DNA of 64,000 nucleotides from positions 1 through 64,000 of IMG/VR virus record IMGVR_UViG_3300022743_000002; one strand, 5' to 3'. Positions 17,033-40,789 of the stretch are shown here, in pieces. How positions within the stretch are numbered: the stretch's first letter is position 1; every line of letters starts with the position of its first letter. The notes under the pieces were generated by a model. The model was not told where the DNA came from, did not search any database, and saw nothing but the letters and a program-made list of their open reading frames with translations. Position numbers and translations under genes: made by a program. This DNA is from a virus.

Positions 17033-20000
17033 TCAAAAAAGAGAACCCGGTGCATCTTTTTCAGCGACCTGGCGCTGCTTGATGTAGTGAGCGACCCCCG
17101 TGTCATCCAGGCCCTCCATGGGCGACGTCATGAGCTCGCGCAATCCGTATTTGCGTTGCAACCGCTCACGGGCCTTGTGAACCTCGGGGTGATCGGCAAT
17201 GCCGTCGATCAATTCCACGTTGTTTTTTTGCCCAGTTCGGAAAATTCGCCCGTTGCGCTGCGCATGAGTCATGGCGGTCTGCGGAGTGTCGTGCTGATAC
17301 AACCACTCGCCGCGCTGAATGTTCATACCGGTGGCGCCGGCATCGCTGGCGACAAGAATGTCAGCCTGGGCTTCACCTTGCTCCGGGTTGAACATGAGCC
17401 GCTTGCGCTCTTTTTCCTTGCCGCTATCAGATCCCGTGATGGTGACGACACGGTGCCCCTCTTTTTGCAGTCGCTCAGTGATCATTCGGACTGCTTCGCG
17501 ATTGTGGGCGAACACCACGCCGGGCTTGCCCTTACGATCGGCGGCCTTCTTCACGAGGTCGTCAATCAGCGGATTGTCGGGGTGCGTGTTGATAACGCGC
17601 TGCACGGCTGACGATCGCATGATGCCTAGCGACTGCTGAAGCCCCTTCGCCACCTCATCGTGATCAGCCTCGGCGACGCCATCGAACGATGCCGGGCTGA
17701 TGGCCTTCATGGCGGCAACATCGACCTTACCTTCCATGCGGGCAATGCGAGCGCTGGTGAAATGCTTGTCCAGTTCGGCCAGCGCTTGCTGCTGCCCGCC
17801 GGATAGAGCTACCTTGGATTCTTTGCGGTCAGCCGTGACGTCGGGGTCGATCTTGCTGGGGTAGACGTAACGCGCCATCTCGCGCTTGAGGGCATCCTTG
17901 GACGCCAATGTATCGGCGCCATAGCGACGCATAAAGGCGCCGCGGTCGTTGTAACGAGCCGGATCCATCTTGCGCATGAGGTCATACACTTCGCTGGCAT
18001 CATTCTTGACCGGATCACCTGACGCCGTGACGTAGTAGGGCGTATGGGCTGACAGAGCGTCGACGACGTTGGCCAGGCCGGAATTCTCCTTGCCTTGCCG
18101 GTTCAGTGTGTACTGGCTTTCGTCGGTAGTCAGATAGTCGAAGTTGATGCCTTCGCGCTCCATGATGCCACCCATCCAGTCCTTGCGCTCGGCGTCGGTC
18201 ATAGAGTTAAGGCGGTCCGCCATCTCGGACTCGCTGATACCGGAGTGCGTGGCGCCCAGGTGCATCATGTCGTCTCGGAACGACTGGTGTGTCATCACGC
18301 AGAAATGGTGGTCCGGGTTCTTGTAGGCCTTGATGCGCTCATCACGGCTGGCGCCAGGCTCAATGTGCCAATTGAATTTCCCGGGCTCCAGGTAGCGCAG
18401 AGCCTCGCCTGAGAACTGGCCCTGCACGATCGAAGGCACAAGAAACATTCCGCGCTTTGCCTTTCCTTGCTGGTGCAGGTGCGTAAAGGAAGCCAGCTGC
18501 AATAGTGACTTGCCGGATCCAGTGCCGAAGGCCGCGACGACGCGCTTATTTGCGTCGACCATCTTCACCAGGCGCTGACGGGCCGCATTCTTGCCGCCGC
18601 TCATCGTCGGAGCCCATAGTTTGGTGGGTTGCCCTGGCTTAAAGTTTTTCCCAACGACACCCATCATGCCGGCAATCTGCCTCTCAGCAACATGGCCAAG
18701 GCTGTGTCGCTCGTCGCCCTTTAGGTCTGCTTGCGTAGCCTCTTTTTCGACCGGGGCGTCATCGCTGCCAAAGAATCCCATCTGCGCCTGATTGAATGCC
18801 TCGTCCTGATCGCGCGCGGCATCCAGCTTGTCCGACACGCTTCCGGCTGCGTAGCGCCCCTGGGACCGCTCGCGCAGGCTGTCAACAAGCTCCCGCTCGC
18901 GTGCCTGCCGCTCCTCGCGCGCCGCGGGGTCGGTGGCGTCGAGGTGGTTCAGGTTGTTGCGGATGACGGACCGCCCCAGCTTGAGGGGCTTACCCGGGTT
19001 CAGCTTGTTGTGGTTGTCCGCGAATGCCTTGCCGACGTTGGAGCGGATCAGATCCTGAATGGCCTCGTAAGCCTTCTCGTGCCCGTGCATGGCCTCAACG
19101 TATTTCGGCCAGTCAAGACCGGCAGCGTTGGCTTTTGCCGCGGCTTCATTGCGCTGGGTGCTCCAGTCGCTCCACTCTGGATTGACGGTGGTGTCACCGA
19201 ACATGTCGGTGGTTTCTTTTTCGGGCTCGTTGGCTTCCAGCCGCTCAACTTCAGCGCGCAGTGCGCCCTGCTCGGGGCTTTCCTTCGCCACGTTGCGGTA
19301 AAAGTGCTCGCGCAGTGTACGCTGGTCCTGGCTGGTCAGTTCGCCAATCTGCTTGAATGCGGCTACGCCATCGGGGTGCTCGGACAGCGCCCGGTGCAGG
19401 GCATCAACCGACGTCTGGTCGACGCTGAAGGACTGCCGGTTCAAGGTGCTGCGCTCGCCACCATAACGGTTTTGCACGAACACGTCCGCATAGCCGTCAA
19501 ATGCGCCGGCCAGCGCCTCGGAGCGGCGCTGCTTGCCTTTGGCGTCCTTGAGCGGCGCCACGGCATCGAGCGCGGCGCGGTACTGCTCGGCCTTGTCGAA
19601 CCCGACTTTTTCAAAGAATGCCGCGCTCTGGATATCCGCCACGATATCGCCGGGCGCGTCACCGTCAGCTGCACGACCGCCGATGTAGTCGCGCAGGGAC
19701 TGCTCCAGGTCATCGCCTGGCGTGAACGGCTCCGCCAGTCGCGGTGCCACCCCGGGCTTGACGTCCATCGCCAGATCCGGGCGGTTAGCTACGCCAAGCG
19801 GAAGCCAGCCGTCCTCGTCCTCGTCGCCGCGGATGATGGACAGGTTGCGTTGCACCTGGGCGACGTCGTCGCGGGCGATCGGCTTTGCAAGGCGGTCCAT
19901 GCCGGCGGCGTTGATGGTCAGGAACGTGTCTCCGGCGACGGTGTCAAGCGTGTAGTCGCCGCGCTGCAGGCCGATAGCGCGCACCCGCTGGATTGCAGAC

Positions 20001-21589
20001 TCCATGCCGATCTTGCCGAGCGAGCCCTGCCACTTGTCTTTGGCGCCCTGCTTCATGGCAGTCACCAGAGCCGCATTGGCTTCCATCTCTCCCAGTGCCT
20101 GCCCCAGTATCTTTTGCGCGTCACCAACGGCGCGTCGCCGGCGGCCATTCATCTCCTGGGCGACCTGCAGGTCGGAGCCGTTTGCGGCCTCGCCCAGTTC
20201 AACCTCTTTTGCGGCGTCCATGAGCTCGCGGGCCTCGCCAAGCGCCTCGGCGCTGGTCTCCATGTAGTGGTGGAGGTGGAAATCCTGCACGCCTTCAGTG
20301 ATGCGCTCGACGTCTGCGGGCATGTCGGCGTGGATCCGGCGTGCCAGCACCTGAGCTGCACCGGCAATGCCAAGCACGTCCACCACGGAGCGGTCCACCA
20401 GGGCCTCGCCACCGACGGCAAGCGCCAGGCTGTTAATGCTGTTGTACGCGCCTATGCCGATATGCTTGCCCAGTGTTTCCTCGGGCTTTTCGCCGGCTAG
20501 GCGTTTGAACTCTGACAGGAACGCCAGTGTCTGTGCGGTGCGCAGGTCGTTGTTAAGGTCCTCGGTGATCTTGGCGTCATCGTCGGGGCTGGCGGTGTAC
20601 TCCAGCACGAACGCCTTGGGCTCGGATGGCGACTTGTCTATTTCGGCAGCTGCGGCGCGGGCTTTTTGTTGCACCTGCTTGAGCTTTTTAGCCGCCTTCA
20701 GGAGCTCGACGGCTTCCTTTGCCGACGCCAGCGTCTTTTCAGCCTTTGGCGCAGCGGGCTCGCGGATGCCTTCCAGTTCGGCCTTGACCAATTTGGCGGT
20801 CTCGCCACGTTGGACGGCAGCTTGCCGTTGCGCGTCGGTCAGGTTTGCGCGCTTCGCTTCCTTCGCTTTGTCGGCCTCCGCCTTCAATTCGTCTGCAGTC
20901 AAGCCGGATGCCTCAGCTCGGCCCTTGAAGTCCTGGCTGAAACCAAGTCCGCCCGGGTTGCTGTCGATTGGCGCCAAGTCCTGAACGCTCAGGGTCTCGG
21001 GGTCCTTGGCGTCTAGCGGCACCTCTCCTATTCCGCCTTCCATGCGCGCAGCGTGGTCAGCGACCAGCATTTGGCGCTGCAGGTCAACGGCCTGCACGGC
21101 CTGCTGCATGATGGCGCGGTGGTGTTTGTCGCGCATCTTTGCCTGGGCGGCTTCGCTCAGGTTCGCGTAGTCGGCCTCCGGAAACTCCAGCTTGCCCTTA
21201 TCCCAGCCCATGGTGGTCGCCACGGTCTGCACAAACTCGCGCTCGTGCTGACGCTGCTGGTCGCGAAGCGCCTGTTTAGCCTTATTCTTGGACTCCAGGA
21301 TGCCGGCTTCTTTGTCGGCGGCGCGCTGAGCCTTCTTTTCCTCGGCCTTGGATTTGCGACGGTCCTCGGCTTCCTTCTTGTACTCGGACTCCTTGCGGAC
21401 GCCGCGCAGCTTCAGGTAGTTCAGCTTGCCACCGGCGCCGCCTATCACATGGGCGCTGCCGTCCGCCTGTGGTTGGATTAAGACGGCTTGGCCATCAGAG
21501 CCAGGGCCGTTGGGGTGAACGGTGATCCAGCGGGCGCCATCCGGGATTGAGGCTTTCAGAAACAAAATTGGGCGGTCTTTTGGCAGCAT
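17033..21589 (-). CDS. Large SF2 (SNF2-like) helicase polyvalent protein
   Basis: 1518 aa; FGTGSGKS, DESQ, ASGDP, QRNGRIFRTGQ; N-terminal PILFLK|A tag. Confidence 0.85.
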   Translation of the reverse strand: MLPKDRPILFLKASIPDGARWITVHPNGPGSDGQAVLIQPQADGSAHVIGGAGGKLNYLKLRGVRKESEYKKEAEDRRKSKAEEKKAQRAADKEAGILESKNKAKQALRDQQRQHEREFVQTVATTMGWDKGKLEFPEADYANLSEAAQAKMRDKHHRAIMQQAVQAVDLQRQMLVADHAARMEGGIGEVPLDAKDPETLSVQDLAPIDSNPGGLGFSQDFKGRAEASGLTADELKAEADKAKEAKRANLTDAQRQAAVQRGETAKLVKAELEGIREPAAPKAEKTLASAKEAVELLKAAKKLKQVQQKARAAAAEIDKSPSEPKAFVLEYTASPDDDAKITEDLNNDLRTAQTLAFLSEFKRLAGEKPEETLGKHIGIGAYNSINSLALAVGGEALVDRSVVDVLGIAGAAQVLARRIHADMPADVERITEGVQDFHLHHYMETSAEALGEARELMDAAKEVELGEAANGSDLQVAQEMNGRRRRAVGDAQKILGQALGEMEANAALVTAMKQGAKDKWQGSLGKIGMESAIQRVRAIGLQRGDYTLDTVAGDTFLTINAAGMDRLAKPIARDDVAQVQRNLSIIRGDEDEDGWLPLGVANRPDLAMDVKPGVAPRLAEPFTPGDDLEQSLRDYIGGRAADGDAPGDIVADIQSAAFFEKVGFDKAEQYRAALDAVAPLKDAKGKQRRSEALAGAFDGYADVFVQNRYGGERSTLNRQSFSVDQTSVDALHRALSEHPDGVAAFKQIGELTSQDQRTLREHFYRNVAKESPEQGALRAEVERLEANEPEKETTDMFGDTTVNPEWSDWSTQRNEAAAKANAAGLDWPKYVEAMHGHEKAYEAIQDLIRSNVGKAFADNHNKLNPGKPLKLGRSVIRNNLNHLDATDPAAREERQARERELVDSLRERSQGRYAAGSVSDKLDAARDQDEAFNQAQMGFFGSDDAPVEKEATQADLKGDERHSLGHVAERQIAGMMGVVGKNFKPGQPTKLWAPTMSGGKNAARQRLVKMVDANKRVVAAFGTGSGKSLLQLASFTHLHQQGKAKRGMFLVPSIVQGQFSGEALRYLEPGKFNWHIEPGASRDERIKAYKNPDHHFCVMTHQSFRDDMMHLGATHSGISESEMADRLNSMTDAERKDWMGGIMEREGINFDYLTTDESQYTLNRQGKENSGLANVVDALSAHTPYYVTASGDPVKNDASEVYDLMRKMDPARYNDRGAFMRRYGADTLASKDALKREMARYVYPSKIDPDVTADRKESKVALSGGQQQALAELDKHFTSARIARMEGKVDVAAMKAISPASFDGVAEADHDEVAKGLQQSLGIMRSSAVQRVINTHPDNPLIDDLVKKAADRKGKPGVVFAHNREAVRMITERLQKEGHRVVTITGSDSGKEKERKRLMFNPEQGEAQADILVASDAGATGMNIQRGEWLYQHDTPQTAMTHAQRNGRIFRTGQKNNVELIDGIADHPEVHKARERLQRKYGLRELMTSPMEGLDDTGVAHYIKQRQVAEKDAPGSLF

Positions 21590-21595
21590 CCGCCC

Positions 21596-21611
21596 ATAGT
21601 AGGGTCACGAC
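21596..21611 (-). promoter_or_regulatory. Late-promoter motif
   Basis: GTCGTGAC-CC-TACTAT-N6-ATG. Confidence 0.8.
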
Positions 21612-21613
21612 CC

Positions 21614-28572: not shown

Positions 28573-30903
28573 TCAGCGCGGCGCCAGGAATACTACAGGC
28601 ATAGACTTTGTAATGTCTGGATTAGAGCCATCGAACTCGCCATTGTTGCCGATAGCCGATTTGATCTGCGTCGGATCAAAAACGACGTACTCAGCGGGGT
28701 AGTCACCGTTCTGGATGTGCCCGTAGCTCAAAATTACACCGTCGTGGCCCTTGGCGGCCAGTTCCTGCGTCCACTTCGCGGCAGCTTCATTGTCACCGCG
28801 GCGCTCGGCGAGCATCAGCCGCTGCTTGTCTTCCAGTGTGGCCTGATACGGGTTCTTTAGGCTCAGGTAGACAGGCATCACGTTGGGTGACGCGCCAGCC
28901 TTGAGGTTGGTGTAGCTGTTGGAGATTTCGGTGTCGTTGGTGAAGTAGAAGCCCTGACCGAGCCAGCCGTTGTCTTTTTTGTTGGCGTGGCCGTGCTTGA
29001 ACTCAGCGAAGTCATCAGCGGTTCCGTGATAAACGATCAACGGCTTACCATTCCCGTCAACCACTTTACTGCCTCGAAACCAGGTCTTGAACTTCGCGGT
29101 TTCGGTTGGATGCTGGAGCGCGGCCGGCTTCGGGGCCAGTCCAGCAGCCACAGCCTGCAACGCCTTCCTGGGGTCTACAAACTCCAATTTGGTGCCCATG
29201 TCGGTGTGACCGACGCGGATCAGGCTCTTGATGTGCGGGCGCACGGCGTGTGACGTGATGCCGAACACCTCGGCGGCCGCTGGAATGAACCACTTGAGCC
29301 CAGATGAGCCAGCTTTCAGGCCTAGCCGATTTAGGTCCATATCCGTGACTTCGCCGCCGGCCATCAACCGATCGCGCATGGCGGCCAGCGCGGTGGCGCG
29401 ATCGGCCTTGTTTTTGGCGGAACTCTCGCGGTTCGATAGCCACTGCTTGCCCTGCGCCGCAGCATCCTCCGGCTTCGCGTGGTACGCGCTCAAAATATCT
29501 TTGCCCGGGAGCTCGACCGCGTAGTGGCCAGCGATTAGCCCTTTGCCGCGCGACCAGGTTGTGCCCTCGGGGAAATCGGACAGCAGGTGGTCGTGCTCGT
29601 GCTCGCCCGCGGGCTCGGTGTGCTGGAGCTCGTCGGCGAACATATCTGGCGTGTGAGTTACCGCGTCCTTGCCGTTCAGCGGGCTCGGCCCCATCGGTTT
29701 GCCGCTCATGGGGCCGCCAAATAGGCTCATTTGCCCGGGCGTAGCATGCGGGCGCGCAGATCGACCCTGATACCCAGCGACGTTCACCAGACGACCGCCA
29801 CGCAGGTACGGGCCAACATGGGATTTGAAGAACAAGACCATGCTCTTGGCGATGGTGGCGCCGCCGGCCGTACCTCGGCTTTCCACGCCGTTGTCGTCGT
29901 TGAACTTCTTGGCGACCTTGATCAACTCCATCGCCGGCATGCCGATCTTGATGATGGGTAGCTGCTTGCCTTCGAGCGCAGCGACGGCCCAGCGGTGGTG
30001 ACCGTCGAGCACGCGATTGTCGGACGACACCAGAATGCGGGTTTTGGCGTCGTACCGGCCCGCCCGCGTCTCGTCCGTCAGGTAGTCCATATTGGCGGCG
30101 TTGTAGGTGCCCTGGGTCGGCTTCAGTTCGGACGGGTTCACCGTGGCCTCGGTCACGGAAACACCTGACTCACGCAGCCCGTTCAAGAACTTTTCTTTCA
30201 CGCCGCTCGGAACCTGGGGCATGTCATCCCGGCGGATGCCAAGCGACGGCTTGAACATTTCCGCGTACTGCTGGTGCCGCTGGCGCTTGTCTTCGTGGGC
30301 CTGCACCACAGTTCCATCGGAGCGGGTGTAGGTATCGACGTGGGCCTTCAGCAGCAGCGCCTTGATCATGGCAGGCTTGTCGATCGTGGCGCGCACCTTG
30401 GAAACGAACTCGGCCACCGGCATGGCGGTGATGGGGCCCAGGAAACGCGGGTCGGTGTAGTTGGCCAGAAATGCCTGCTTGGCGTCTTCCTCGCTATCGA
30501 ACCCGGCCATGGCCTTGTCTTCATCGTAGCGGGTCCAGTCGCCATAGGTGTTCTGGTGCACCACGTAGACCATGGGCGCGTCCGGGTTCGGGCCCATGTA
30601 GATATCGACCGGGTCACCATCCACGCCCATGGATCCGACCACCTCGCCGTAGTCGTAGGACATGCGGATTTCCCAGGCCTCGCCGGACCGGTTCACGCCG
30701 CGGCGCACGGATCCCGCCGGATTCTCAATTGCCAGCGTCAGTCCCTGCCATTCGATGCGTGGCTTCTTGTAGGCGCCCTCGCCGGCCTGGGCGGCACTGG
30801 GCTCGCCGGGGTTTCGGCGAACTTCGCCTTCCCCCAGGTCGGCAGGCTTGGCGGCGCCGCTCATTGCCTGTGTGACGGGGTGGGATTTGAGGAAAACGAT
30901 CAC
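28573..30903 (-). CDS. Polyvalent protein: inorganic pyrophosphatase-like, ParB-like and ADP-ribosyltransferase (ART-PolyVal-like) domains
   Basis: 776 aa; DYG..DGDPVD..DEDK; LKPTQ..VLDGHHRW; VYHGT..GFYFT..LKNP..HDGVI..EYVVFDPTQIKS. Confidence 0.85.
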   Translation of the reverse strand: MIVFLKSHPVTQAMSGAAKPADLGEGEVRRNPGEPSAAQAGEGAYKKPRIEWQGLTLAIENPAGSVRRGVNRSGEAWEIRMSYDYGEVVGSMGVDGDPVDIYMGPNPDAPMVYVVHQNTYGDWTRYDEDKAMAGFDSEEDAKQAFLANYTDPRFLGPITAMPVAEFVSKVRATIDKPAMIKALLLKAHVDTYTRSDGTVVQAHEDKRQRHQQYAEMFKPSLGIRRDDMPQVPSGVKEKFLNGLRESGVSVTEATVNPSELKPTQGTYNAANMDYLTDETRAGRYDAKTRILVSSDNRVLDGHHRWAVAALEGKQLPIIKIGMPAMELIKVAKKFNDDNGVESRGTAGGATIAKSMVLFFKSHVGPYLRGGRLVNVAGYQGRSARPHATPGQMSLFGGPMSGKPMGPSPLNGKDAVTHTPDMFADELQHTEPAGEHEHDHLLSDFPEGTTWSRGKGLIAGHYAVELPGKDILSAYHAKPEDAAAQGKQWLSNRESSAKNKADRATALAAMRDRLMAGGEVTDMDLNRLGLKAGSSGLKWFIPAAAEVFGITSHAVRPHIKSLIRVGHTDMGTKLEFVDPRKALQAVAAGLAPKPAALQHPTETAKFKTWFRGSKVVDGNGKPLIVYHGTADDFAEFKHGHANKKDNGWLGQGFYFTNDTEISNSYTNLKAGASPNVMPVYLSLKNPYQATLEDKQRLMLAERRGDNEAAAKWTQELAAKGHDGVILSYGHIQNGDYPAEYVVFDPTQIKSAIGNNGEFDGSNPDITKSMPVVFLAPR

Positions 30904-32060
30904 TTTGGTTCCTTGCGCGGCATGGCCGCCAGCTTGTCACGCATCCATTGCCCGAACTCCACATCGTCACCTGGCCGGTCCTGAATCGTCGGAACCCAGC
31001 GCCCACGGCAATGCGGGTGCACCAGGCCGACTGGCACCTGCCACATCTCCTCGGGCTCGCGCTCCTTGAACACGGACCCCACGCGCTTGCGTGGGCTGGC
31101 GCTTCGCCCAACGTTGGTTTTGCCCGGCCAAATCATGGTCTCCGGGTCCTTGTCCTCGCGGGCGGCGTCCACGACTTCCATGACGCGGCCGTCGATTTTG
31201 CGACAGAACGCACAGGCGTTTTTGTACTGCTCGACACGCTTGACCTTGGTGCCCATGGGTAGAGACGACACGTAGCCGGCGGTCTGTGCTTCGCCGGCCT
31301 CGGTCACGGCGATCCGCCGCCAGTCGCGGTTCAGCGTGCCGAACTGGTCGAGGAGCTTGGTCTCCAGACTCGACGACGGTGCCGGCAGTCCGAGCTCGCG
31401 CTCCGTGACGTGCTCGGCAATGACGCCACGCATGCGGTGCCGGACGTCATTGGCGATGTTGCGGACATTCTCGGCACAGCGGGTTTCAGCGTGAGCCATG
31501 GTAGCGCGCTGTGCGACGGTGCCGCCAAACGCCGCAATGGCCTCAGCGGCCGTGCTCGGCATGGCCGCCAGCAGCACGTCGGCCTGCTTGGCGTCGGCGG
31601 CCTCCATGTTGGCCTGCACGCGCCCCATGAGGCTGGCACGTGTCGACAACCAGTCGGCCTCGGTGCGCATGTCGTCTGCAGGCAGGTAGCGCTGCACCGT
31701 CGCGTCGACGGCAAGCATGTGGTCTTCCAGCGTCCAATCGGACGGCGGGAGGTGTTCGAGGTAGATATGGACCAGAGAGAGCTCGCTTTGCGTCCATCGC
31801 TCCATCATGCCGCCAGGGCGAATGATGCGCTCGCCGGGCTTGTGTCGGACGCCGGCGGTCCAGGCCTGAATCTCGGTGCGCACGGCGTCAAGGCGATCGA
31901 GACCGCGCTGCGTGAAAAGCTCGACCAGGCGACGCAGCAACGGGCTATCCATTGGCGCCCAGATGCCGTCGTCGTGGTCATGCGTGGACTTGCACAGGAA
32001 CTCCAGAGCGTCGTTTGTGACGCGCTCACCAAGTTCAATTAAATCGACGAACAAAGACAT
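30900..32060 (-). CDS. MuF-like head morphogenesis protein
   Basis: 386 aa; RIAVTE, ACAFC and HPHCRG motifs. Confidence 0.8.
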   Translation of the reverse strand: MSLFVDLIELGERVTNDALEFLCKSTHDHDDGIWAPMDSPLLRRLVELFTQRGLDRLDAVRTEIQAWTAGVRHKPGERIIRPGGMMERWTQSELSLVHIYLEHLPPSDWTLEDHMLAVDATVQRYLPADDMRTEADWLSTRASLMGRVQANMEAADAKQADVLLAAMPSTAAEAIAAFGGTVAQRATMAHAETRCAENVRNIANDVRHRMRGVIAEHVTERELGLPAPSSSLETKLLDQFGTLNRDWRRIAVTEAGEAQTAGYVSSLPMGTKVKRVEQYKNACAFCRKIDGRVMEVVDAAREDKDPETMIWPGKTNVGRSASPRKRVGSVFKEREPEEMWQVPVGLVHPHCRGRWVPTIQDRPGDDVEFGQWMRDKLAAMPRKEPK

Positions 32061-32066
32061 GCTGGC

Positions 32067-32252: not shown

Positions 32253-32258
32253 AATGGC

Positions 32259-32274
32259 AGTGTGCAGTCACGAC
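32259..32274 (-). promoter_or_regulatory. Late-promoter motif with no downstream start codon
   Basis: GTCGTGAC-TG-CACACT-N6-G. Confidence 0.7.
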
Positions 32275-32300: not shown

Positions 32301-32305
32301 AAAAG

Positions 32306-32570: not shown

Positions 32571-32592
32571 AACTAATTCTAATCACAAATAA

Positions 32593-33189: not shown

Positions 33190-33398
33190 GCCTGATCCCT
33201 GGTCTCGGCCTTTTGTTCACCCATGTAGGGCTTCACTTCGTCGAGGGTCATGGGGTTGCTCAGCCTACGTACCCTGTCGACGTCGCCTTCGTAGGGCTTC
33301 CATTGGCCGGTCCGCTCTAGGTAGACCTCCATCTTGCCGCCGGCATCCCGGAAAACAGCCCCCTCGACCTCAAAATACTGCTCAGTTCCCATTTTCAC
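33186..33398 (-). CDS. 70 aa hypothetical protein between synthetase and hydrolase (candidate antitoxin/regulator)
   Basis: Overlaps both neighbours; function inferred from position only. Confidence 0.65.
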   Translation of the reverse strand: MKMGTEQYFEVEGAVFRDAGGKMEVYLERTGQWKPYEGDVDRVRRLSNPMTLDEVKPYMGEQKAETRDQA

Positions 33399-34980
33399 GC
33401 CCCTTCAAATTCCACAAGATCATTCTAGGCGTTGGCATAGATTTAGTCAAATTTGATGATTCATTCTGTTGTTGTTTCTCACCAGCCTTAGCTTTCTCCC
33501 AGGCATCACCGTAGAGAGACTCCTGCTCTTTCATGGCGGCGGCGTGCGTCTCACGGTCCTTGGCGTCCCATTTGCTTGTATCTGAGCCAACGCCATTCTC
33601 GCGATATTTACCTTCTATTGATCGCGTTGTCTCGTATGGCTTGTGGCCTTTTTCCTTGGCCAGCGTCATTGGCTTCACGTGCACCTGCATCTCGGCGAGC
33701 ATGCCGTTGGGTAGCCGCATGATCATGTTGATATCGCGGTAGCCGCCCGGCAATGGCTTGACCAGGTTGTTCTTGGGCTTCTGCGCCAGCTCGATGCCGG
33801 CCGCCTTGAGCTCGGCGAGCACCTTCGGGATTTGGGTGACGCCAGGCACTGCGATTGTGGCGCGCACCATGTCGCGCAGCTGCGACCAGTCGCCGTCGTA
33901 GTCCTGGGCGACCTTCTCCTTGGCGCGCTTCTCGCCCTTGAGCGGGCCCATGAACAGGTAGCCGCGATCGTCGTCCCAGTGCTCGGGCAGCATGTAGTCG
34001 GTGTCGGACAGGTCGGCCGGATTGCGGCCTTCCTTCTCGGCGTTGATCTTCTCCTCGTGCTGGGCGTGGTCCAGCGACTGCGGGCGCTTGCCGGTCACCA
34101 GACCAAGATTCTGCGCGACCTTGCTGAGCATATCGCTGTACTGCTTCAGGCCTTCCTCGCCCTTGGACTTCAGTTCATCCCATGACTGGACAGGCTGATT
34201 GACCTTGGTCGGCAGCTTATCGAGCTCTGAGGTATCGAATAGCGCGCGAGCGATCCCCTCGGCGCCGTCGGGGGCCGGCTTTGGCGTTCCCGGCGCGTCT
34301 ACCTGGTTGGGTTGCGTCTCCTGGTGCGGACTCGCGTCCGGCTTACCTTCGCCGCCCCAGTGGTGGGTAATTTTGTCATGCGTTACAAGGTGTTGGCCAC
34401 CGGCGCTGTCCCGGACACGCACGCCGTCCTTGCCGGATGCCGTTACCTCGCCGTGCCCCTTGTGCTCGCCATTGGCAAAGCCGACGTGCTGGCCGCGCTG
34501 GGCCGGCGGGCTACCCTGGTCAGTGCTGACCCACTTGGTAGTTTGAACGCCATTCTTATCAGTGATTACCTTCTTTTGCAGACCGGGTGCACCAGCGTAG
34601 GTTCCCGGCGCTGACGCCTTCATAAATAGCATGACGGGCCGCGTGTGCCCCATTGATTTAGCGACCATTGGGTCTTCCTTGGATTCGTTTGGTATTGCCA
34701 CAAATCGACGCCGGCCGGACTTGTCCTCGACCAGCATGCCATCCTCTCCTTGATCGACGACGGCGTATTTTTGCAGGGCCCGGGTCTTGTGACCAAGGAC
34801 CTTGTCCCATCGGACCGGGTGATGGCCGCCGTCAATCTCGACGGTTACGCCGTGCTTTCCGTGCGCCTTGACCAAGCCGGTGCGCGGTTGTCCGCGGTGG
34901 TGCACATACAGATGGTCGCCCACCTCGACGTCGTGGCGCGGCTCCGGCTCCGGGCGCGGCTTAGGCTTCTGGTAGGTCAT
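33382..34980 (-). CDS. RelA/SpoT-type small alarmone synthetase domain protein with N-terminal SH3/KOW-like modules
   Basis: GPLKGEKRAKEK, LRDMVRAT, GGYRDIN and AEMQVH synthetase motifs. Confidence 0.85.
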   Translation of the reverse strand: MTYQKPKPRPEPEPRHDVEVGDHLYVHHRGQPRTGLVKAHGKHGVTVEIDGGHHPVRWDKVLGHKTRALQKYAVVDQGEDGMLVEDKSGRRRFVAIPNESKEDPMVAKSMGHTRPVMLFMKASAPGTYAGAPGLQKKVITDKNGVQTTKWVSTDQGSPPAQRGQHVGFANGEHKGHGEVTASGKDGVRVRDSAGGQHLVTHDKITHHWGGEGKPDASPHQETQPNQVDAPGTPKPAPDGAEGIARALFDTSELDKLPTKVNQPVQSWDELKSKGEEGLKQYSDMLSKVAQNLGLVTGKRPQSLDHAQHEEKINAEKEGRNPADLSDTDYMLPEHWDDDRGYLFMGPLKGEKRAKEKVAQDYDGDWSQLRDMVRATIAVPGVTQIPKVLAELKAAGIELAQKPKNNLVKPLPGGYRDINMIMRLPNGMLAEMQVHVKPMTLAKEKGHKPYETTRSIEGKYRENGVGSDTSKWDAKDRETHAAAMKEQESLYGDAWEKAKAGEKQQQNESSNLTKSMPTPRMILWNLKGRENGN

Positions 34981-36722
34981 GATTGAATTCTGAACACCGG
35001 CAGGCCAAACGACTTGGCTATGTCCTGCTGATCATCTCCGGGCCTCTCCGTAGCCCCAGCATCATCGGGCGCCCCGAAGTCTTGCCCGCCCTGATCGTCA
35101 CCAAAATCCTGATCGCCGCCGCCGTCATCGCCGTCATCGGTCGACTGCCCAGGCTCAGCGCCAGGCTGGCCGTAGTCCTCTTGCTGCGGCATTGCCTCTT
35201 GTTGCCAGGCGCCAACCAGCGAGGGATTCAATGGAGCGTCACCCCACTTACCGTCGGCCTTGTCGACGCCGTCCTCGGCTCGGATCTCGTTGACGGTGCG
35301 CGTCATTTTTTTGCGCTCCCAGATCGTCTTTTCGTCTTCCTCGTCCAGGCCGGTGAACTGGAATTCGTACTTGTCACTGAACTCGCCAATGACGTACTCG
35401 CTCAGCGTGGACTCGAAATAGCTCAGCAGGGGGCGCAGGCCCTTGTCTTTGCTGTTGACGATCTTCTCCTCGGTGTCGTCTCCGCTCAGCGATGACGTTC
35501 CGGACGTGAAGCTCTCAAAATTGATTTCCTCGGGCGCAATGCCGTAGATCGCGCAGATGATGGATGACAAGAACGTCATCCACTTGGCGAACATGATTTC
35601 GTTGGCGGCGTTACCGAATTCCGTGAAGTCGGCTTTCGACTCCTGATCCTTGGACACCATGACGGGCAGCGTCCAGGCGTTATTGACGCCCTTGACCATG
35701 CCGTTCCAGTAGCGCTTAAAGGCGGCAACATCCTCGTCGCTGTAGTTTCCGTACAGGTTCAGCATGCCCTTGGGTATGGCGTTGCTGTCGAAAAATTTGG
35801 TGTTGTAGGTGAAGGCGTTCAGAAAGCCCGTCACCACGCGGATAAGCAGTTCCGTCTCGGACAGTCCGTAGCCGCCAGCAAGCACGTCGGTGCGTGGGTT
35901 GCGCGGCACATACACCAGGTCGTCATAGGTGTAGGCGCTGCGGATCTGGCCTTGCACGACCTGGAGGGCGAAAATCTCGTCTTCGCCTTGGTAGCCGTCT
36001 TCGCTGCACAACCGAATGGTGGCTCCGTCGACGGCGTACATGCCGTCCAGGCCGAGCGACTTGTCGCGCTTCCACTCGGTCTCAATCGGTGCGCTGTCCA
36101 TGGTGAGGCTGTCGCGCACCAGCTTCATCATGAAGTTTTGGAAGTTGTCGCGCTTCAGGCGCAGGCGCTGGCGGGGCTTGGTCTCCCAGCCGCTGTTGGT
36201 CACGAATGACTCCAGCAGCTTAATGGTGGCCTTTTCGTTTTCGTCGATGTTCTCCAGCTTTTCCTTGCTGGCGATCCTGAAACCCGACCCCTTGCCACCC
36301 TTCTGCGGCCGGCAAAACCTGGCCACCTGGCGCTGGCGCGTCATTATGACGGCGTTCAAAATCGGCGTTTGGTCCACCATGGCGCGCATGGCATCAAACG
36401 TGAATTGGCCGGGTCGCTCGAACCAGTCGCCGTTGATGTTGATCTGCAGGTCGTCCAGCCAGACCGACTGCATGCCGGGCTTCTTGTCTTTGATGGCATT
36501 CGACGGGAACGGGATGACGTTCTGCTTTTGCAGCGACTTCGCCATGGCCTGATCGTCCAGGTCACGGTTGATGTAGTCAATGATGGGCTGAATGTTCGCC
36601 GCCGGTATCAGGTCCGACAACGCCTTGGGCATGCTGGATTTTTGAAGCTCCGCCATGGCTTCAGTCCGCTCGTCGGCGGGCGCACGTGGATCAGCGAGTA
36701 TGGCGCGGGCAGCATCAGTCAT
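34977..36722 (-). CDS. Portal protein
   Basis: 581 aa; DGATIRL, GYGLSETE, PKGML, ICAIYGIAPEEIN, KGLRPLL and TVNEIRA portal motifs. Confidence 0.92.
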   Translation of the reverse strand: MTDAARAILADPRAPADERTEAMAELQKSSMPKALSDLIPAANIQPIIDYINRDLDDQAMAKSLQKQNVIPFPSNAIKDKKPGMQSVWLDDLQININGDWFERPGQFTFDAMRAMVDQTPILNAVIMTRQRQVARFCRPQKGGKGSGFRIASKEKLENIDENEKATIKLLESFVTNSGWETKPRQRLRLKRDNFQNFMMKLVRDSLTMDSAPIETEWKRDKSLGLDGMYAVDGATIRLCSEDGYQGEDEIFALQVVQGQIRSAYTYDDLVYVPRNPRTDVLAGGYGLSETELLIRVVTGFLNAFTYNTKFFDSNAIPKGMLNLYGNYSDEDVAAFKRYWNGMVKGVNNAWTLPVMVSKDQESKADFTEFGNAANEIMFAKWMTFLSSIICAIYGIAPEEINFESFTSGTSSLSGDDTEEKIVNSKDKGLRPLLSYFESTLSEYVIGEFSDKYEFQFTGLDEEDEKTIWERKKMTRTVNEIRAEDGVDKADGKWGDAPLNPSLVGAWQQEAMPQQEDYGQPGAEPGQSTDDGDDGGGDQDFGDDQGGQDFGAPDDAGATERPGDDQQDIAKSFGLPVFRIQS

Positions 36723-36728
36723 GCCTGA

Positions 36729-36744
36729 AGGGTAACGTCACGAC
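36729..36744 (-). promoter_or_regulatory. Late-promoter motif for portal operon
   Basis: GTCGTGAC-GT-TACCCT-N6-ATG. Confidence 0.8.
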
Positions 36745-36762
36745 ATTTTTTATCCCGGAGTG

Positions 36763-36792
36763 TTGCTTATTTTTGAGTAATGGCATTAGAAT
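36763..36792 (+). promoter_or_regulatory. Candidate sigma70 promoter for the plus-strand cassette
   Basis: TTGCTT-N18-TAGAAT upstream of an AAGGAG RBS. Confidence 0.5.
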
Positions 36793-36816
36793 TCGTCAAC
36801 ATTCACAAGGAGTTTT

Positions 36817-37059
36817 ATGCACACACCCGAACAAGCCAAAGGCCTTTGGTGCCCAATGGTGCGTATTGCGCGCCGCGAAGACCCGGACCCGAATGCCCGC
36901 ACCACCGTCGTCGCAGGCTGCAACACCGACGCCCTTGGCAAGGTCCGCGTACCCGCGTCCTGCCGCTGCATCGCCAACGAGTGCGCGATGTGGCGCTGGG
37001 CGGATGGTCCGGACGGCCTGGGGTACTGCGGGCTGGCTCCGCTACCCAAAACTGATTAG
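36817..37059 (+). CDS. Small Cys-rich hypothetical protein
   Basis: AAGGAG RBS; WCP..CIANECAMWRW..GYCGLA. Confidence 0.75.
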   Translation: MHTPEQAKGLWCPMVRIARREDPDPNARTTVVAGCNTDALGKVRVPASCRCIANECAMWRWADGPDGLGYCGLAPLPKTD

Positions 37060-37146
37060 CAAGCTGTTTTTATTTTGTATTTCCCCAGTGAAACTCTGGA
37101 GACGCCAATATCCCGGGCGCGAGTCGGGCGCAAATTACCTACCATC

Positions 37147-38058
37147 ATGTTTAAGAACGCAAGTGTTTTCAAAATCAAACTAACCCAGCACGCGCTGACG
37201 CAGACACTGAACGACGCCGCTGGCCGCGCACTTTTCCTGCCATGCTACCCAACTCAGGAGCGCTCAGTCGGCTGGGTTTCACCACGCGGCCATGAGCACG
37301 GCCCGCTGGTGGAGAACATTGGCGGGCACCTGATCATGCGCTTGATGATCGAAACCAAGACGGTGCCAACCCAGGCCATCGATGACGCCGTGGCTGCCAA
37401 GGTCAAGAAGATCGAGGAGACCACCGGACGCAAGCCCGGCAAGAAGGAAATGAGCGAGCTCAAGTCAGACGCGCGCCTGGCTTTGCTGCCAAACGCATTC
37501 GCGCAGCGCGCTGCCGTCTTTGTTTGGATTGACCGGGAAAACGGTCGGCTGGTGCTGGACGCCGCCGGCCAGAACCGCGTCGACGAGGTCGCCACGCAGC
37601 TAATCAAGCTGGTGGACGGCGTCGTCATCGGGTTCCTGACTACCCAGACGTCGCCGGCTGCCGCCATGACGATGTGGCTCAATGACCACGACGCACTCGC
37701 CAGAGACTTCAGCATTGGCCGGTCCGCCACGCTCAAGGCTACCGACGAGAGCAAGGCGGTCGTGCGTTACACACGCCACGGGCTGGACACCGACGAGGTC
37801 CGCCAGCATATCGCCCAGGGCAAGATAGCGACCAAGCTGGCGCTGACGTATCGCGATCGCGTGGCTTTCACGCTGACTGACGGCGGAGTGCTGACTGGGC
37901 TCGAATTCCTTGACTCCGTATTCGAGGAGCGCGCCGACACGGCCGCCGACAGCTTTGACGCCGACGTCGCCATTCTCACCGGGGAGTTGTCCAGGCTGAT
38001 CCCTGACCTGGTCGAGGAAATGGGCGGGGAGTTCGATGAAGAAGGCGGCGCAGCATGA
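37147..38058 (+). CDS. rdgC: Recombination-associated protein RdgC
   Basis: MFKNASVF start, SVGWVSP, LLPNAF, GKIATKLAL, FDADVAILTGEL. Confidence 0.9.
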   Translation: MFKNASVFKIKLTQHALTQTLNDAAGRALFLPCYPTQERSVGWVSPRGHEHGPLVENIGGHLIMRLMIETKTVPTQAIDDAVAAKVKKIEETTGRKPGKKEMSELKSDARLALLPNAFAQRAAVFVWIDRENGRLVLDAAGQNRVDEVATQLIKLVDGVVIGFLTTQTSPAAAMTMWLNDHDALARDFSIGRSATLKATDESKAVVRYTRHGLDTDEVRQHIAQGKIATKLALTYRDRVAFTLTDGGVLTGLEFLDSVFEERADTAADSFDADVAILTGELSRLIPDLVEEMGGEFDEEGGAA

Positions 38059-38270
38059 GTGAATCGGAGATTGAATCGCTTCGCTCTCGCGTGAGGGAAT
38101 TATGCAACCTCGTCCGAAAGGTGCACAAAGCCAAGGGCCGATACCACACCCAGCTGGCGATGTGCGACCTGTTTGACTCCGTGGGTCTGCCTAGTGAGCG
38201 CCCAGAGAAGGATGGCGCGAGCGCGCGCGAACACAATCGCCCCGACGACACTGAGGGCGGGAAAATATGA
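38055..38270 (+). CDS. Hypothetical protein
   Basis: ATGA-coupled to both neighbours. Confidence 0.65.
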   Translation: MSESEIESLRSRVRELCNLVRKVHKAKGRYHTQLAMCDLFDSVGLPSERPEKDGASAREHNRPDDTEGGKI

Positions 38271-38791
38271 TCACCTACAAGACCCAACCAGGAACCATAC
38301 CCCATCGAGCGGTCGCGTATCTGCGAACTTTGCCACCGGGAACGCAAAAAAGTACCGCAGAGCTGGCGCACGCCATTGACGCGGACCCGGAAACCATTGT
38401 GTTCACCATGCGCCCAGCGCGAGATGCCGGGATGGTCAATGCCGAATACGTGCCTGGCGACAAACGACGACTGTACTGGAGTCTTGGCAATGGATTGCAG
38501 CAGCCAACACCGGCCGAACAACCCGATAAGCAGCCCGCGCCTACACGCGAGGCGGCCAAACCAAAAGCGAAAAAAGAACCAAAAGCCGCGCCACCGGAAA
38601 GCTCCGAATTAGACGCCAACCCGCCGACGGCAGTAAAAACAAAGAGGACGCGAACCCCGAGGCTTCGCCGCAATTTCCGCGTTGGGTGGTTCACCGATGG
38701 CACGGCACATATTGAGATAGGGCAACATAAATTCGTCCTGGACAGCGTCGAGACGGCGGCCATCGCGGACATTTTCAAGAGGTTGAAATGA
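38267..38791 (+). CDS. Hypothetical protein with winged-HTH-like N-terminus
   Basis: STAELAHAIDADP..; coupled overlaps. Confidence 0.65.
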   Translation: MITYKTQPGTIPHRAVAYLRTLPPGTQKSTAELAHAIDADPETIVFTMRPARDAGMVNAEYVPGDKRRLYWSLGNGLQQPTPAEQPDKQPAPTREAAKPKAKKEPKAAPPESSELDANPPTAVKTKRTRTPRLRRNFRVGWFTDGTAHIEIGQHKFVLDSVETAAIADIFKRLK

Positions 38792-39072
38792 TTGAACCAA
38801 TCAAGGCCGGCGACATGGCCGAAGTCGTTGGTGGCCTGGGCAGGGCCAAAAGCCCGAACCTTGGGCTGATCGTTACCGTCGTGTCATTCCAGGGCGAGCA
38901 TAGCCAGCATGGCCGGATATGGCGCTGCAAGTCGCCGCACCTTCAGCAACTTGGCGATGCCGGGCAGTATGTAATCGCCGGATGGGCTGACCTGGCTCAA
39001 TCATGGCTTCGCAAGATTGAGCCGCCAAAGTTCAAAACCGCCACGTCGGCGAAGCTCGAAGCCAGTCATTAA
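38788..39072 (+). CDS. Hypothetical SH3-like phage protein
   Basis: IKAGDMAEVV...WLRKIEP; coupled start. Confidence 0.65.
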   Translation: MIEPIKAGDMAEVVGGLGRAKSPNLGLIVTVVSFQGEHSQHGRIWRCKSPHLQQLGDAGQYVIAGWADLAQSWLRKIEPPKFKTATSAKLEASH

Positions 39073-39116
39073 ATTACGCCGCCGGGTGCGTTACCCGGAT
39101 TTTCTAGGAGACTCCA

Positions 39117-39392
39117 ATGAATAAGACACAACTGATTGCAGCCGTCGCATCAGACACAAACCTGAGCACCGAAGATGCTCGCAAAGCCGTCGATGCTGTA
39201 ATTTCCAACCTATCGTCCGGCATGAGGAACGGGGACACCGTTACCATTCATGGCTTTGGCTCGTTCAGCGCAGCAGACAAAGCCGCACGCATGGGTCGCA
39301 ACCCAAACACCGGACAGGCGACAGAGATTGCCGCCCGCAAGGCGCCGCGATTCAAACCAAGCGCAGCGCTCAAGGCTGCTCTAAACGCCTGA
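39117..39392 (+). CDS. HU-family DNA-binding protein
   Basis: MNKTQLI..GFGSF..ARMGRNPNTG..PRFKPSAALK. Confidence 0.95.
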   Translation: MNKTQLIAAVASDTNLSTEDARKAVDAVISNLSSGMRNGDTVTIHGFGSFSAADKAARMGRNPNTGQATEIAARKAPRFKPSAALKAALNA

Positions 39393-39486
39393 TTTCGCAC
39401 CCTCCCACATCAAATTTACATGCCTGGCTTGCAAAAAGCTCAAGACCGGTATATTCGCCCTCCCCGAAGCGACGCGGGGAGGGGAA

Positions 39487-40332
39487 ATGGGCTCGTCAAT
39501 TCAATACAAACCAGGCACAAAGAGACGCGACGCCAGGCTTGGTGATGTTCATGTGCACGTATTTGAAGACGCCATCGGAATAGATTCAATCGTCGTACCA
39601 GAGCACTCCATTTTTATTCTGGCTCGCGGCGTTTCGATGGTCGACATTTTAGAATCCGGTGAGCTACCAAGGCACACATACGGAGCTGGGTCCATCAGGT
39701 TTCTCCCGGCTGGCACACACCTATCGTCGGTCGATGTTTCTGCGCCCTACACAGAGACGATGATCCGCGTTCCGGAAAGCGCGTTCCGCCAGGCCGCCCG
39801 CGACAAAATTTGCTACAACTCACTGCAGTGGAGCTTTGTGAGGGCGCCAGCTGAGAAGACGTTCGGCGTCGCCCAAACGCTAGCCAATGTAGCCATGGCT
39901 GAGAATCCATCCCCGCTGTTTGTAGACGCCGTAATCAATGCGCTTTGCATTGGCGTCATGTGCACCAACATGGACCGGACCTATGAGGCCACGCGCCAAG
40001 TTCCGGGCGGGCTGTCGCCAGAGCGGCAGCGTCGCGTCGTCGAATTCATTGAGAAAAACCTATCGGAGACAATCACGCTATCCGACGTGGCTCATGTCGC
40101 CGCGCTGAGCCCGTTCCATTTCAACCGGGCATTCCGCGCATCGATGGGCACAACGCCATCGAGGTATGTCATGTCCATGCGGGCGTTAAGAGCCAAGCGG
40201 ATGCTGTGCGACCGCACAATGCAAATCGCCTGCGTAGCGATGGAGTGCGGATTCAGCAACCAAAGCCATTTCACCACGGCCTTTAAGAAGGCAACCGGGA
40301 TGACGCCGGCAGAGTGGCGCCGCAATAACTGA
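39487..40332 (+). CDS. AraC-family transcriptional regulator
   Basis: C-terminal double HTH: LSPFHFNRAF..G..P and CGFSNQSHFTTAFKKATGMTP. Confidence 0.92.
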   Translation: MGSSIQYKPGTKRRDARLGDVHVHVFEDAIGIDSIVVPEHSIFILARGVSMVDILESGELPRHTYGAGSIRFLPAGTHLSSVDVSAPYTETMIRVPESAFRQAARDKICYNSLQWSFVRAPAEKTFGVAQTLANVAMAENPSPLFVDAVINALCIGVMCTNMDRTYEATRQVPGGLSPERQRRVVEFIEKNLSETITLSDVAHVAALSPFHFNRAFRASMGTTPSRYVMSMRALRAKRMLCDRTMQIACVAMECGFSNQSHFTTAFKKATGMTPAEWRRNN

Positions 40333-40420
40333 GTCACAAGCTGTTTTATATGTGACGCCAAGTTCGCGCCACCATTAGCTTTTCGCGTGTTTTCCGTTTT
40401 CTCGTGTGATAGCCGGGCGC

Positions 40421-40789
40421 TTATCGGGCGCCAGTTACGCGCTTTTCACCGTCGTATTTTGCCTTTGCGTCCTTCAGCGGCTGCTGGCGCTTCTTTAGCT
40501 CCATGTGCGCATAGTGCACCTCGTCGATGTACTGTCCGCCCTTTTTGTCGTTGCCCATTGCGTAGGCGTGCTTGGCCGCCTCTTTGGCATCCTTGATCAC
40601 GTAATGGAGCTGGTCTTCGCTGTAGGTCGCAAATTTGCCCTGGGTCCGGCTGTGCCAGTTTTCCTCGTCGCGCCAGTCTTTTTTTGGTTTGGCGGCCTGC
40701 CGCTTGTCGTCATGCGCACCCACAACGGAGCCGTCCTTGCGCGTGAACGTATCAATGTGCGACTTGAAAAATAGGGCGAGTGCTTTCAT
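40421..40789 (-). CDS. 122 aa basic protein carrying the shared tag
   Basis: MKALALFFK|SHIDTFTRKDGSVVGAH; has its own late promoter. Confidence 0.8.
   Translation of the reverse strand: MKALALFFKSHIDTFTRKDGSVVGAHDDKRQAAKPKKDWRDEENWHSRTQGKFATYSEDQLHYVIKDAKEAAKHAYAMGNDKKGGQYIDEVHYAHMELKKRQQPLKDAKAKYDGEKRVTGAR

Follow-up and report, generated by a model that had tools for sequence, protein, structure and literature searches.

What is the role of a short hydrophobic peptide that recurs on otherwise unrelated late proteins of a phage? The question is raised by the first 64 kb (64,000 nucleotides, hereafter the window) of one 87,750-bp contig, IMG/VR record IMGVR_UViG_3300022743_000002. The encoded entity is a contractile-tailed, PHB04-like phage, and several enzymes encoded within its head module carry a run of hydrophobic residues followed by K|S/A, where the bar marks a predicted cut. 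The motif, M-x(0-10)-[ILVFM]4-(T)-K|[S/A], is probably a cleavable capsid-targeting tag, i.e., a Lys-specific analogue of the T4 capsid-targeting sequence placed on effectors of the polyvalent type. Sequence analysis shows that the motif is present, that it is specific and conserved, and that it goes with this head module.

A sequence-only reading of the window had listed six such peptides on unrelated late proteins: a helicase, a DarB homologue, a 776-aa polyprotein, an HD hydrolase, a 532-aa synthetase, and a 122-aa protein. All six were found at the claimed places on the minus strand (Table 1), and five of them, a point that had not been stressed, sit in residues 1-15 of their proteins. The strict motif [ILVMF]{4}T?K[SA] has six matches in the 97 open reading frames (ORFs) of the whole genome (27,150 aa), against 0.94 expected from shuffles, and all are confined to the block from portal to protease. 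Four of the matches are within the first 15 residues; shuffles give 0.058 (maximum 2). The start codons of the tagged genes are backed by Shine-Dalgarno sequences or by a promoter directly in front. The tag codons vary between genes and there is no nucleotide repeat common to the tags, so their likeness lies at the level of the protein, not of the DNA. A DNA repeat or translation signal was considered and rejected on these same two grounds.

The tags are more hydrophobic than other sites of this kind: the mean hydropathy at P5-P2 is 2.7, versus 0.9 at the canonical sites of capsid protein, scaffold, protease, and portal (P = 4e-4). Inside the 776-aa and 532-aa proteins, the run has a cut site on either side (K|S-x-run-K|), and it is also placed at the C-termini of both; the same “site - run - site” junctions are present in related contigs. 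A run bracketed by two predicted cut sites would be excised. Always excised in this prediction, whatever its place, the run looks like a removable address rather than a mere separator.

The sequence-only reading had stated the rule as a hydrophobic residue followed by K|S/A. The K|S/A part holds, and we could refine the rest: in the general rule the hydrophobic residue is at P3 (hydrophobic-x-K|S/A/G), to which the tags add four hydrophobic residues at P5-P2. Sites had been claimed in the capsid N-terminus, in the protease and portal, and at least seven times in the scaffold; they are all present. The pattern [ILVMF].K[SA] occurs seven times in the scaffold versus 1.03 expected from shuffles, six times in the protease (0.95 expected), and five times in the portal (1.24 expected, P = 0.007). 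Among the cargo polyproteins, the 776-aa protein has six (2.0 expected) and the 532-aa protein four (1.3 expected). Enrichment is restricted to these five proteins. Tail, replication, and other proteins are at expectation, so that the comparison of head with other proteins, proposed earlier as a check, came out in favour of the motif. The capsid protein has exactly one match (K27), with about 0.9 expected, a count too near expectation to tell whether the motif is depleted in its mature part.

The capsid site is kept in all relatives (DLQK|A, ELQK|A, DLIK|A, DLSK|A, ALQK|S, SMMK|S, ELTK|A, AFVK|A) and aligns with ALNK|ALEAGH of SPO1 gp6.1 and DVVK24|SFQTGYG of phi812. A homologous chain in the PDB (9row_B, 439 residues) begins at the equivalent of A28, as the mature form would. 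Our literature searches returned no open text confirming cleavage of the A511 or phi812 capsid protein; the cleavage of A511-type capsids stated in the sequence-only reading has indirect support only, from the phi812 sequence and the start of the PDB chain. Eight relatives, with capsid proteins 36-50% identical, keep the sites of capsid protein, protease, and scaffold; six site columns of the scaffold are kept in 5 to 8 of the 8 despite its poor overall conservation. The N-terminal site of the protease recurs in relatives as SMLK|A and variants, and the site near residue 24 of the 386-aa minor head protein is kept in PHB04, Dolphis, ST4, Touem01, and ECML-606-1. The 386-aa protein itself matched no Pfam or PHROG family.

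The prohead protease is the predicted cutter after hydrophobic-x-K, a rule that we derive from sequence. It has no Pfam match, and the Atlas points to Peptidase_S78, which we take as a lead. Its AlphaFold2 (AF2) model (mean pLDDT 72.7) has T4 gp21 (5jbl) as sole confident Foldseek match (E = 1.7e-6, probability 1.00), and H72 and S145 are invariant in 34 homologues. T4 gp21 cuts by the rule I/L-x-E (PMC12991175), of which hydrophobic-x-K|S/A/G appears to be the Lys counterpart. Two further features of this protein were observed. Residues 209-235, FAK211|ALEAGYGTDSAALAGGSAMRVQSL, repeat the cut site and mature N-terminal arm of the capsid protein (LQK27|ALTAGYGTDVSGFAGGSALRIQSL) and are conserved in the 34 homologues; by means of this copy the protease may be incorporated into the prohead and set free later. 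Public gene calls often begin at M20, giving 283-284-aa forms, which would hide the predicted N-terminal self-site SMLK22|A.

Many tags are followed by a basic beta-hairpin-like motif, H/Y-V-x-G-Y/H-T-R-x-D-G-T-x-V-x-x-H-x-R. It comes after the tag in the DarB homologue, the HD hydrolase, and the 122-aa protein, at both internal junctions of the 776-aa protein, and in many relatives; tags with no hairpin occur in the helicase, InPase, and ADP-ribosyltransferase families. We drew 120 viral loci from IMG/VR by the DNA pattern of the hairpin alone (GYTRxDGTxV), independently of head genes. The hairpin is preceded by a tag in 16 of them. Homologues of the portal, terminase, capsid protein, protease, or 386-aa protein were present in 15 of these 16 loci versus none of the 104 untagged ones (Fisher P = 3e-18). 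The tagged proteins of these loci are of the NUDIX, WGR-domain, RadC-helicase, and HD types. Elsewhere in IMG/VR the hairpin motif is common just after the signal peptides of small secreted proteins and at the C-termini of small proteins; it is thus a widespread mini-module.

The helicase tag is kept in 112 of 120 database homologues, behind 62 different leaders of 0-11 residues. Its Lys is invariant and is followed by A in 90 and by S in 18. Such conservation behind varied leaders indicates purifying selection on the tag. In some homologues the sites are duplicated, or a hairpin separates the tag from the helicase; among cultured-phage relatives, only PHB04 and Mecenats66 share the helicase N-terminus. 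In three homologues (P0080, P0088, P0097) a glycine-rich stretch, GG.GSG.HGH.GRPGK.GGS, takes the place of the hairpin after the tag and may be another linker or adaptor module. The internal junction of the 532-aa protein is kept in 108 of 120 homologues, one of which (P0343) is without the N-terminal domains and begins directly with the tag.

The tag also moves between proteins. In PHB04 the InPase is a separate protein that carries a tag, and the HD orthologue has VIVFLK|A; in the 88 of the 94 kb of this genome that we examined, tags are found only on four orthologues, at the internal synthetase junction, and on one hairpin protein, gp049. In the other relatives examined (ST4, Mecenats66, ECML-606-1), the tag heads NUDIX hydrolases (ST4, Mecenats66), a 1177-aa ADP-ribosyltransferase (ST4), proteins of 1238 and 2254 aa, and a 287-aa protein of ECML-606-1. 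On IMG/VR contigs it heads NUDIX, WGR, and RadC-helicase proteins. The tagged proteins thus differ between relatives, in line with the “swappable” set that had been proposed.

The tagged genes appear to be expressed with the head genes. The promoter-like motif RTCGTGA-N4-A-N3-T has ten matches in the window versus 0.65 expected. The nine copies on the minus strand are 6-7 nt upstream of late-gene start codons, the copy at 32259 being without a convincing ORF. The motif precedes the genes of the protease, the helicase, the DarB homologue, the 386-aa protein, the portal, and the 122-aa protein, and a small ORF before the terminase. This common late promoter motif implies that the tagged genes are co-regulated with the operons of portal, protease, and terminase. 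Three tagged genes are apparently leaderless, lying directly behind the motif, and the arrangement suggests that late mRNAs are leaderless or near-leaderless.

The candidate cargo consists largely of recognisable enzymes, and the earlier labels of DarB-like protein and HD hydrolase were borne out, respectively by BLAST to P1 DarB and by HD_4; the 776-aa protein matches the Pfam families InPase and ART-PolyVal. The 2202-aa protein matches the Pfam families N6_Mtase, Eco57I, SNF2, and Helicase_C, and aligns with P1 DarB in three collinear BLASTP segments (E = 1e-50, 7e-41, 4e-26), the first residues aligned being 384 here and 56 in P1; by these alignments it is a true DarB homologue. The Ulx-like gene follows it in the order of darB-ulx in P1, and pairwise BLAST of its product with P1 Ulx was not significant. 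In the 776-aa protein, InPase covers residues 38-169 and ART-PolyVal residues 616-757, and the PHROG domain matches fall between the junctions. The HD protein is of the alarmone-hydrolase type, with a Shine-Dalgarno sequence before its GTG start. A homologue of the 122-aa protein with IVLFFK|S sits within the cargo block of an IMG/VR locus (L011). Pfam gave no match to the 122-aa, 386-aa, and 70-aa proteins or to the DarB homologue and helicase in their N-terminal parts. Nor did it detect a peptidase domain in any cargo protein (E <= 0.01) or in the rescanned parts (E <= 5).

The label of synthetase for the 532-aa protein had no support from Pfam alone. It is backed by the fold of the C-terminal domain, for which the best Foldseek match is Tas1 (6ox6, E = 4e-8), together with small alarmone synthetases, and by about 40 homologues that carry PF04607. 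The Foldseek list also includes chains of the Pol II complex in the same range of E-values. The AF2 model is confident at residues ~250-500 (pLDDT above 90) but not at 106-134 and 505-532 (below 50), so that the junction, between well-folded domains, and the C-terminal stretch are predicted to be disordered. A MuF (SPP1 gp7) domain was not matched by Pfam in the full-length protein (E <= 0.01) or in residues 123-532 (E <= 5). The genes of the synthetase, the 70-aa ORF, and the HD hydrolase (32593-34980) overlap one another and the portal stop codon. Tas1 is a (p)ppApp-making toxin, and the trio looks like a set of toxin, small partner, and hydrolase carried as head cargo. No family was found for the 70-aa ORF, which from its position may be an immunity partner.

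From these observations we infer that the cut is made, that the hydrophobic run serves in loading, and that the cargo is packaged and injected, as follows. A prohead serine protease of the gp21/HK97 type would cut after Lys in hydrophobic-x-K|S/A/G, trimming the capsid protein, itself, the portal, and the minor head protein, and shredding the scaffold. Effectors made from the same late promoters would offer it a stronger site, with four hydrophobics before the Lys, at their N-terminus, junctions, or C-terminus. The run would dock the pre-protein into the prohead core, most likely in the substrate groove of the protease or on the scaffold. The active protease would then strip the tag and split polyproteins into single enzymes. 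The matured enzymes would remain in the head and be delivered into the cell together with the DNA, like P1 DarB and T4 internal proteins. The predicted cargo comprises the DarB-type methyltransferase-helicase, the second helicase, the InPase, the ADP-ribosyltransferase, the Tas1-like alarmone synthetase, the HD hydrolase, and the 122-aa protein. The capsid-cargo interpretation of the sequence-only reading is upheld in that K|S/A marks canonical protease substrates, that the tag is conserved and portable, and in the DarB homology and late promoter; the loading, cleavage, and injection that it proposed remain predictions. Its statements that T4 internal proteins use a cleaved capsid-targeting sequence and that P1 DarB is packaged agree with the literature (PMC9024508, PMC12991175). 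It had recognised no description of the tag, and our literature searches likewise found no Lys-ended cargo tag.

A bolder form of this reading is tentative. The five-to-seven-residue peptide, four hydrophobics and Lys, might be a minimal, position-independent “zip code”: a pseudo-substrate docking in the protease (or scaffold), with the protease as receptor and remover at once and the hairpin as a second module that keeps the cargo on the DNA for co-ejection. If so, any enzyme or chain of enzymes could be loaded in a plug-and-play fashion, cut apart at its junctions, and injected, and processing by the head protease, not self-cleavage by an MPTase, would be a general way in which polyvalent effectors mature.

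Several points weigh against a capsid-targeting tag. The strict motif was defined after inspection, which makes the shuffle figures indicative only; the comparative tests are independent of this choice. Part of the conservation of the tag is simple orthology. Distant relatives have weaker tags (MDLMK|A, PLMAK|A, SAALLK|G), and several genes of the block, those of the Ulx-like protein and the PHB04 phosphatase and the 70-aa ORF, are untagged. The targeting sequence of P1 DarB has no sequence relation to the tag and no known cleavage. Literature searches found no virion proteome, N-terminal sequence, or packaging experiment for this phage or its relatives, and the paper on Mecenats66 contains no proteomics. 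Finally, loading could depend on the basic hairpin, on the N-terminal beta domains of the synthetase, or on the Ulx-like or 386-aa head protein.

This last point leads to the alternative that survives best, in which K|S/A is a head-protease cut site only, the run is extended recognition, and loading is by the hairpin, the beta domains, or the Ulx-like or 386-aa protein. The hairpin does follow the tag at the places listed above and in many relatives, yet the helicase, InPase, and ADP-ribosyltransferase families are tagged without it. The synthetase has a separate N-terminal module and adjoins the portal gene, and loading of DarB in P1 requires helpers including Ulx (PMC9024508). The junctions themselves are difficult to explain in these terms: one site would suffice to separate two domains, yet “site - run - site” is kept in the 108 homologues of the 532-aa protein. 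The tags are also far more hydrophobic than the capsid, scaffold, and protease sites, and a six-residue N-terminal propeptide has no obvious use unless it is an address or an inhibitor. We therefore regard a cut site with no part in loading as unlikely.

A use unrelated to the capsid is much less probable still. Here the tag would head a mobile N-terminal module spread by recombination within this phage lineage and serve a purpose such as masking toxic enzymes, binding a chaperone, or contacting the membrane or a secretion route. Some of the cargo is indeed toxic (the Tas1-like synthetase), tag and hairpin act as a portable cassette on many enzymes, and outside this lineage the hairpin also follows the signal peptides of small secreted proteins. 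However, the tag ends in the K|S/A rule that the sites of scaffold, protease, portal, and capsid protein also follow, in the hairpin-locus test it is present only alongside this head module, it has no signal-peptide or lipobox feature, and it is also found internally and at C-termini. Chance, composition, or a nucleotide-level or translation-start signal can practically be dismissed: the motif is short and was defined after being seen, and three tagged genes are apparently leaderless behind the promoter motif, but the four N-terminal matches compare with 0.06 in shuffles, Shine-Dalgarno-led genes and internal and C-terminal positions are tagged too, the tag is conserved in more than 100 homologues in each of two families, and tagged loci co-occur with the head module.

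A capsid-targeting tag of this kind would matter because T4, and in part P1, are the only phages in which it is understood how enzymes for anti-defence and host takeover get into the capsid. The rule that it offers is short and recognisable, and it applies to cultured phages: PHB04 (Bordetella bronchiseptica), ECML-606-1 (E. coli), Mecenats66, and ST4. If the reading is right, injected cargo is predictable from sequence alone, and the peptide could be a very small handle for packaging foreign proteins in phage heads. The tag also ties the “polyvalent protein” repertoire to maturation by the head protease. In ordinary tryptic proteomics a cut after Lys cannot be told from a tryptic end, and this may explain how it escaped notice.

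The closest named relatives of the phage are Bordetella phage PHB04 (capsid protein 50% identical), Pseudomonas phages Dolphis, Jeremy, and Touem01, Aeromonas phage ST4, Morganella phage Mecenats66, and E. coli phage ECML-606-1; remoter ones are Thermus phages and the SPO1/Twort group. The head module runs along the minus strand from the large terminase to the 122-aa ORF, then, after a plus-strand island, through the portal, the 532-aa protein, the 70-aa ORF, the HD hydrolase, the 386-aa protein, the 776-aa protein, the DarB homologue, the Ulx-like protein, and the helicase to the protease, scaffold, and capsid protein. The gene order of PHB04 is identical. The island, which interrupts the module, encodes RdgC, an HU-like DNA-binding protein, and an AraC-family regulator; in ST4 an AraC regulator is also close to the tagged ADP-ribosyltransferase. 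Outside the window, an ORF (genome 67504-68820) has an N-terminus that by eye resembles those of tyrosine integrases of the P4 type. The lineage may be temperate, since Thermus phage Lalka8 encodes an integrase and a “putative integrase family protein” is annotated in PHB04.

Table 1. Features of the window that are discussed in the text. Bars in peptides mark predicted cuts; residue numbers refer to the encoded protein.
Feature	Position	Strand	Remarks
Tag PILFLKA	21551-21571	minus	residues 7-13 of the helicase
Tag LIFFTKS	28504-28524	minus	residues 9-15 of the DarB homologue
Tag IVFLKS	30883-30900	minus	residues 2-7 of the 776-aa protein
Tag ILLFKS	33169-33186	minus	residues 2-7 of the HD protein
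Tag VMLFMKA	34615-34635	minus	residues 116-122 of the 532-aa protein
Tag LALFFKS	40760-40780	minus	residues 4-10 of the 122-aa protein
Major capsid protein, SPO1/Twort type	13448..14899	minus	phrog_752; single site LQK27|ALTAGYG at 14798-14827
Scaffold, 206 aa	14929..15549	minus	7 predicted sites
Prohead protease, 303 aa	15546..16457	minus	phrog_1028; predicted self-sites SMLK22|A, FAK211|ALEAGYG
Capsid-arm copy in protease	15753-15833	minus	residues 209-235
Protease N-terminus often omitted from public gene calls	16400-16457	minus	calls often begin at M20
SF2 helicase, 1518 aa	17033..21589	minus	Pfam Helicase_C/DEAD, phrog_62; N-terminal tag MLPKDRPILFLK12|AS
Ulx-like protein, 109 aa	21614..21943	minus	untagged, directly downstream of DarB homologue; phrog_1629 “Ulx-like anti-restriction”, E = 8e-15
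DarB homologue, 2202 aa	21940..28548	minus	N6-methyltransferase and SNF2 helicase; tag (MLPEGCH)MLIFFTK14|S, then basic hairpin (PVHVAAHVRKDGALVDAHVR)
Polyprotein, 776 aa	28573..30903	minus	tag MIVFLK6|S, InPase, junction, middle domain, junction, ADP-ribosyltransferase, C-terminal site
C-terminal ITK766|SMPVVFLAPR, 776-aa protein	28576-28614	minus	cut site and run, ending the protein
Junction IAK353|SMVLFFK360|S, 776-aa protein	29824-29853	minus	between middle domain and ADP-ribosyltransferase
Junction AMIK181|ALLLK186|A, 776-aa protein	30346-30372	minus	after InPase
Minor head protein, 386 aa, conserved	30900..32060	minus	predicted propeptide site EFLCK24|S at 31986-32003
HD phosphohydrolase, 198 aa	32593..33189	minus	Pfam HD_4, E = 4e-13; tag MILLFK6|S, then hairpin
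ORF, 70 aa	33186..33398	minus	untagged; between synthetase and HD hydrolase
532-aa protein	33382..34980	minus	two small beta domains, disordered junction (predicted), Tas1-like RelA/SpoT synthetase domain, C-terminal site
C-terminal NLTK513|SMPTPRMILWNLK.., 532-aa protein	33385-33453	minus	cut site and run
Junction PMVAK108|SMGHTRPVMLFMK121|A, 532-aa protein	34615-34671	minus	before synthetase domain
Portal protein	34977..36722	minus	Pfam Phage_portal; predicted cut sites near both ends, ELQK28|S and DIAK570|SFGLPVF
Island	36780-40332	plus	RdgC (37075-38058), HU-like protein (39117-39392), AraC-family regulator (39487-40332)
122-aa protein	40421..40789	minus	directly downstream of large terminase; tag MKALALFFK9|S, then hairpin
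Large terminase	40805-42925	minus	
Hairpin motif	28420-28490, 33100-33165, 40700-40755, 30290-30345, 29770-29823		also in loci L022-L141
Late promoter-like motif, 9 copies	4372, 16464, 21596, 28555, 32067, 32259, 36729, 40796 (40796-40811), 43613	minus	
Late promoter-like motif	52300	plus	

The nearest known system is that of T4, in which the capsid-targeting sequence on IPI-III and Alt is removed by the prohead protease gp21 (Mullaney and Black 1996, cited in PMC9024508 and PMC12991175). In both phages a short N-terminal peptide is placed on unrelated proteins (five N-terminal tags in the window, more families in relatives) and ends in the consensus of the head protease, with a hydrophobic P3 and a specific P1. 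The same motif shreds the scaffold, in our case by the predicted rule, and the protease has the gp21/assemblin fold, here in a model matching 5jbl. The differences are several. P1 is Lys here and Glu in T4. The address is a four-hydrophobic run of only 5-7 residues, and it also occurs, with a cut site on each side, between domains and at C-termini. The cargo consists of large polyvalent-type enzymes of up to 2202 aa, whereas T4 packs small basic proteins. The lineage has an SPO1-type capsid, and the system is known here from sequence alone.

P1 packages DarB via its N-terminal 30 residues (PMC9024508). Both phages have DarB and a Ulx-like gene adjoining the portal and protease genes, and both place an N-terminal signal, here a predicted one, on a very large enzyme. 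The N-terminus of P1 DarB (MNKLSMGVFRCSS..) has no hydrophobic-run-K|S/A and no similarity to the tag, its signal is without known removal, and the P1 capsid protein is cut after Glu (E120|S121). A tblastn search of P1 proteins against the whole genome matched DarB only; Hdf, DarA, DdrA, and DdrB had no homologue. Since the loading chain of P1 has no homologue here, another loading route is needed. The authors of the P1 work found no targeting sequence common to Dar proteins (PMC9024508), whereas here one tag is common to all cargo.

Processing of many head-internal proteins at one protease motif also likens the system to the giant phages phiKZ and SPN3US, which have an inner body. The protease motif of these phages ends in Glu. 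Their head and ejection proteins have propeptides cut by gp175/gp245, for which prohead targeting was proposed (PMC10052503, PMC5694885). These propeptides are mostly of 111-254 residues (two are of 20 and 24), with no short common address. For polyvalent proteins, Iyer et al. 2017 proposed self-processing by an MPTase and described no N-terminal tag (PMC5512222). The repertoire is the same (InPase, ART-PolyVal, DarB-type methyltransferase-helicase, RelA/SpoT, NUDIX, HD, RadC), as are the position among head genes and the predicted delivery with the DNA, and the 776-aa protein joins several effector domains. In contrast, no peptidase domain was found in the cargo here, the junctions carry head-protease sites, and the domains are distributed among several separately tagged genes.

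Short terminal peptides direct proteins to the interior of shells of the HK97 fold in two other cases, the C-terminal targeting tail of the HK97 protease and the cargo-loading peptides of encapsulins. They are C-terminal, generally not removed (encapsulins), and unrelated in sequence. The HK97 capsid protein is also cut after Lys (K103|S104); the protease here differs in carrying a copy of the mature N-terminus of the capsid protein. The principle is thus known already from the T4 capsid-targeting sequence and the N-terminal signal of P1 DarB (PMC9024508), and the tag resembles phiKZ-like propeptides (PMC10052503). What differs here is the Lys specificity, the very short hydrophobic address, its use at N-termini, junctions, and C-termini, and its association with polyvalent-type effectors.

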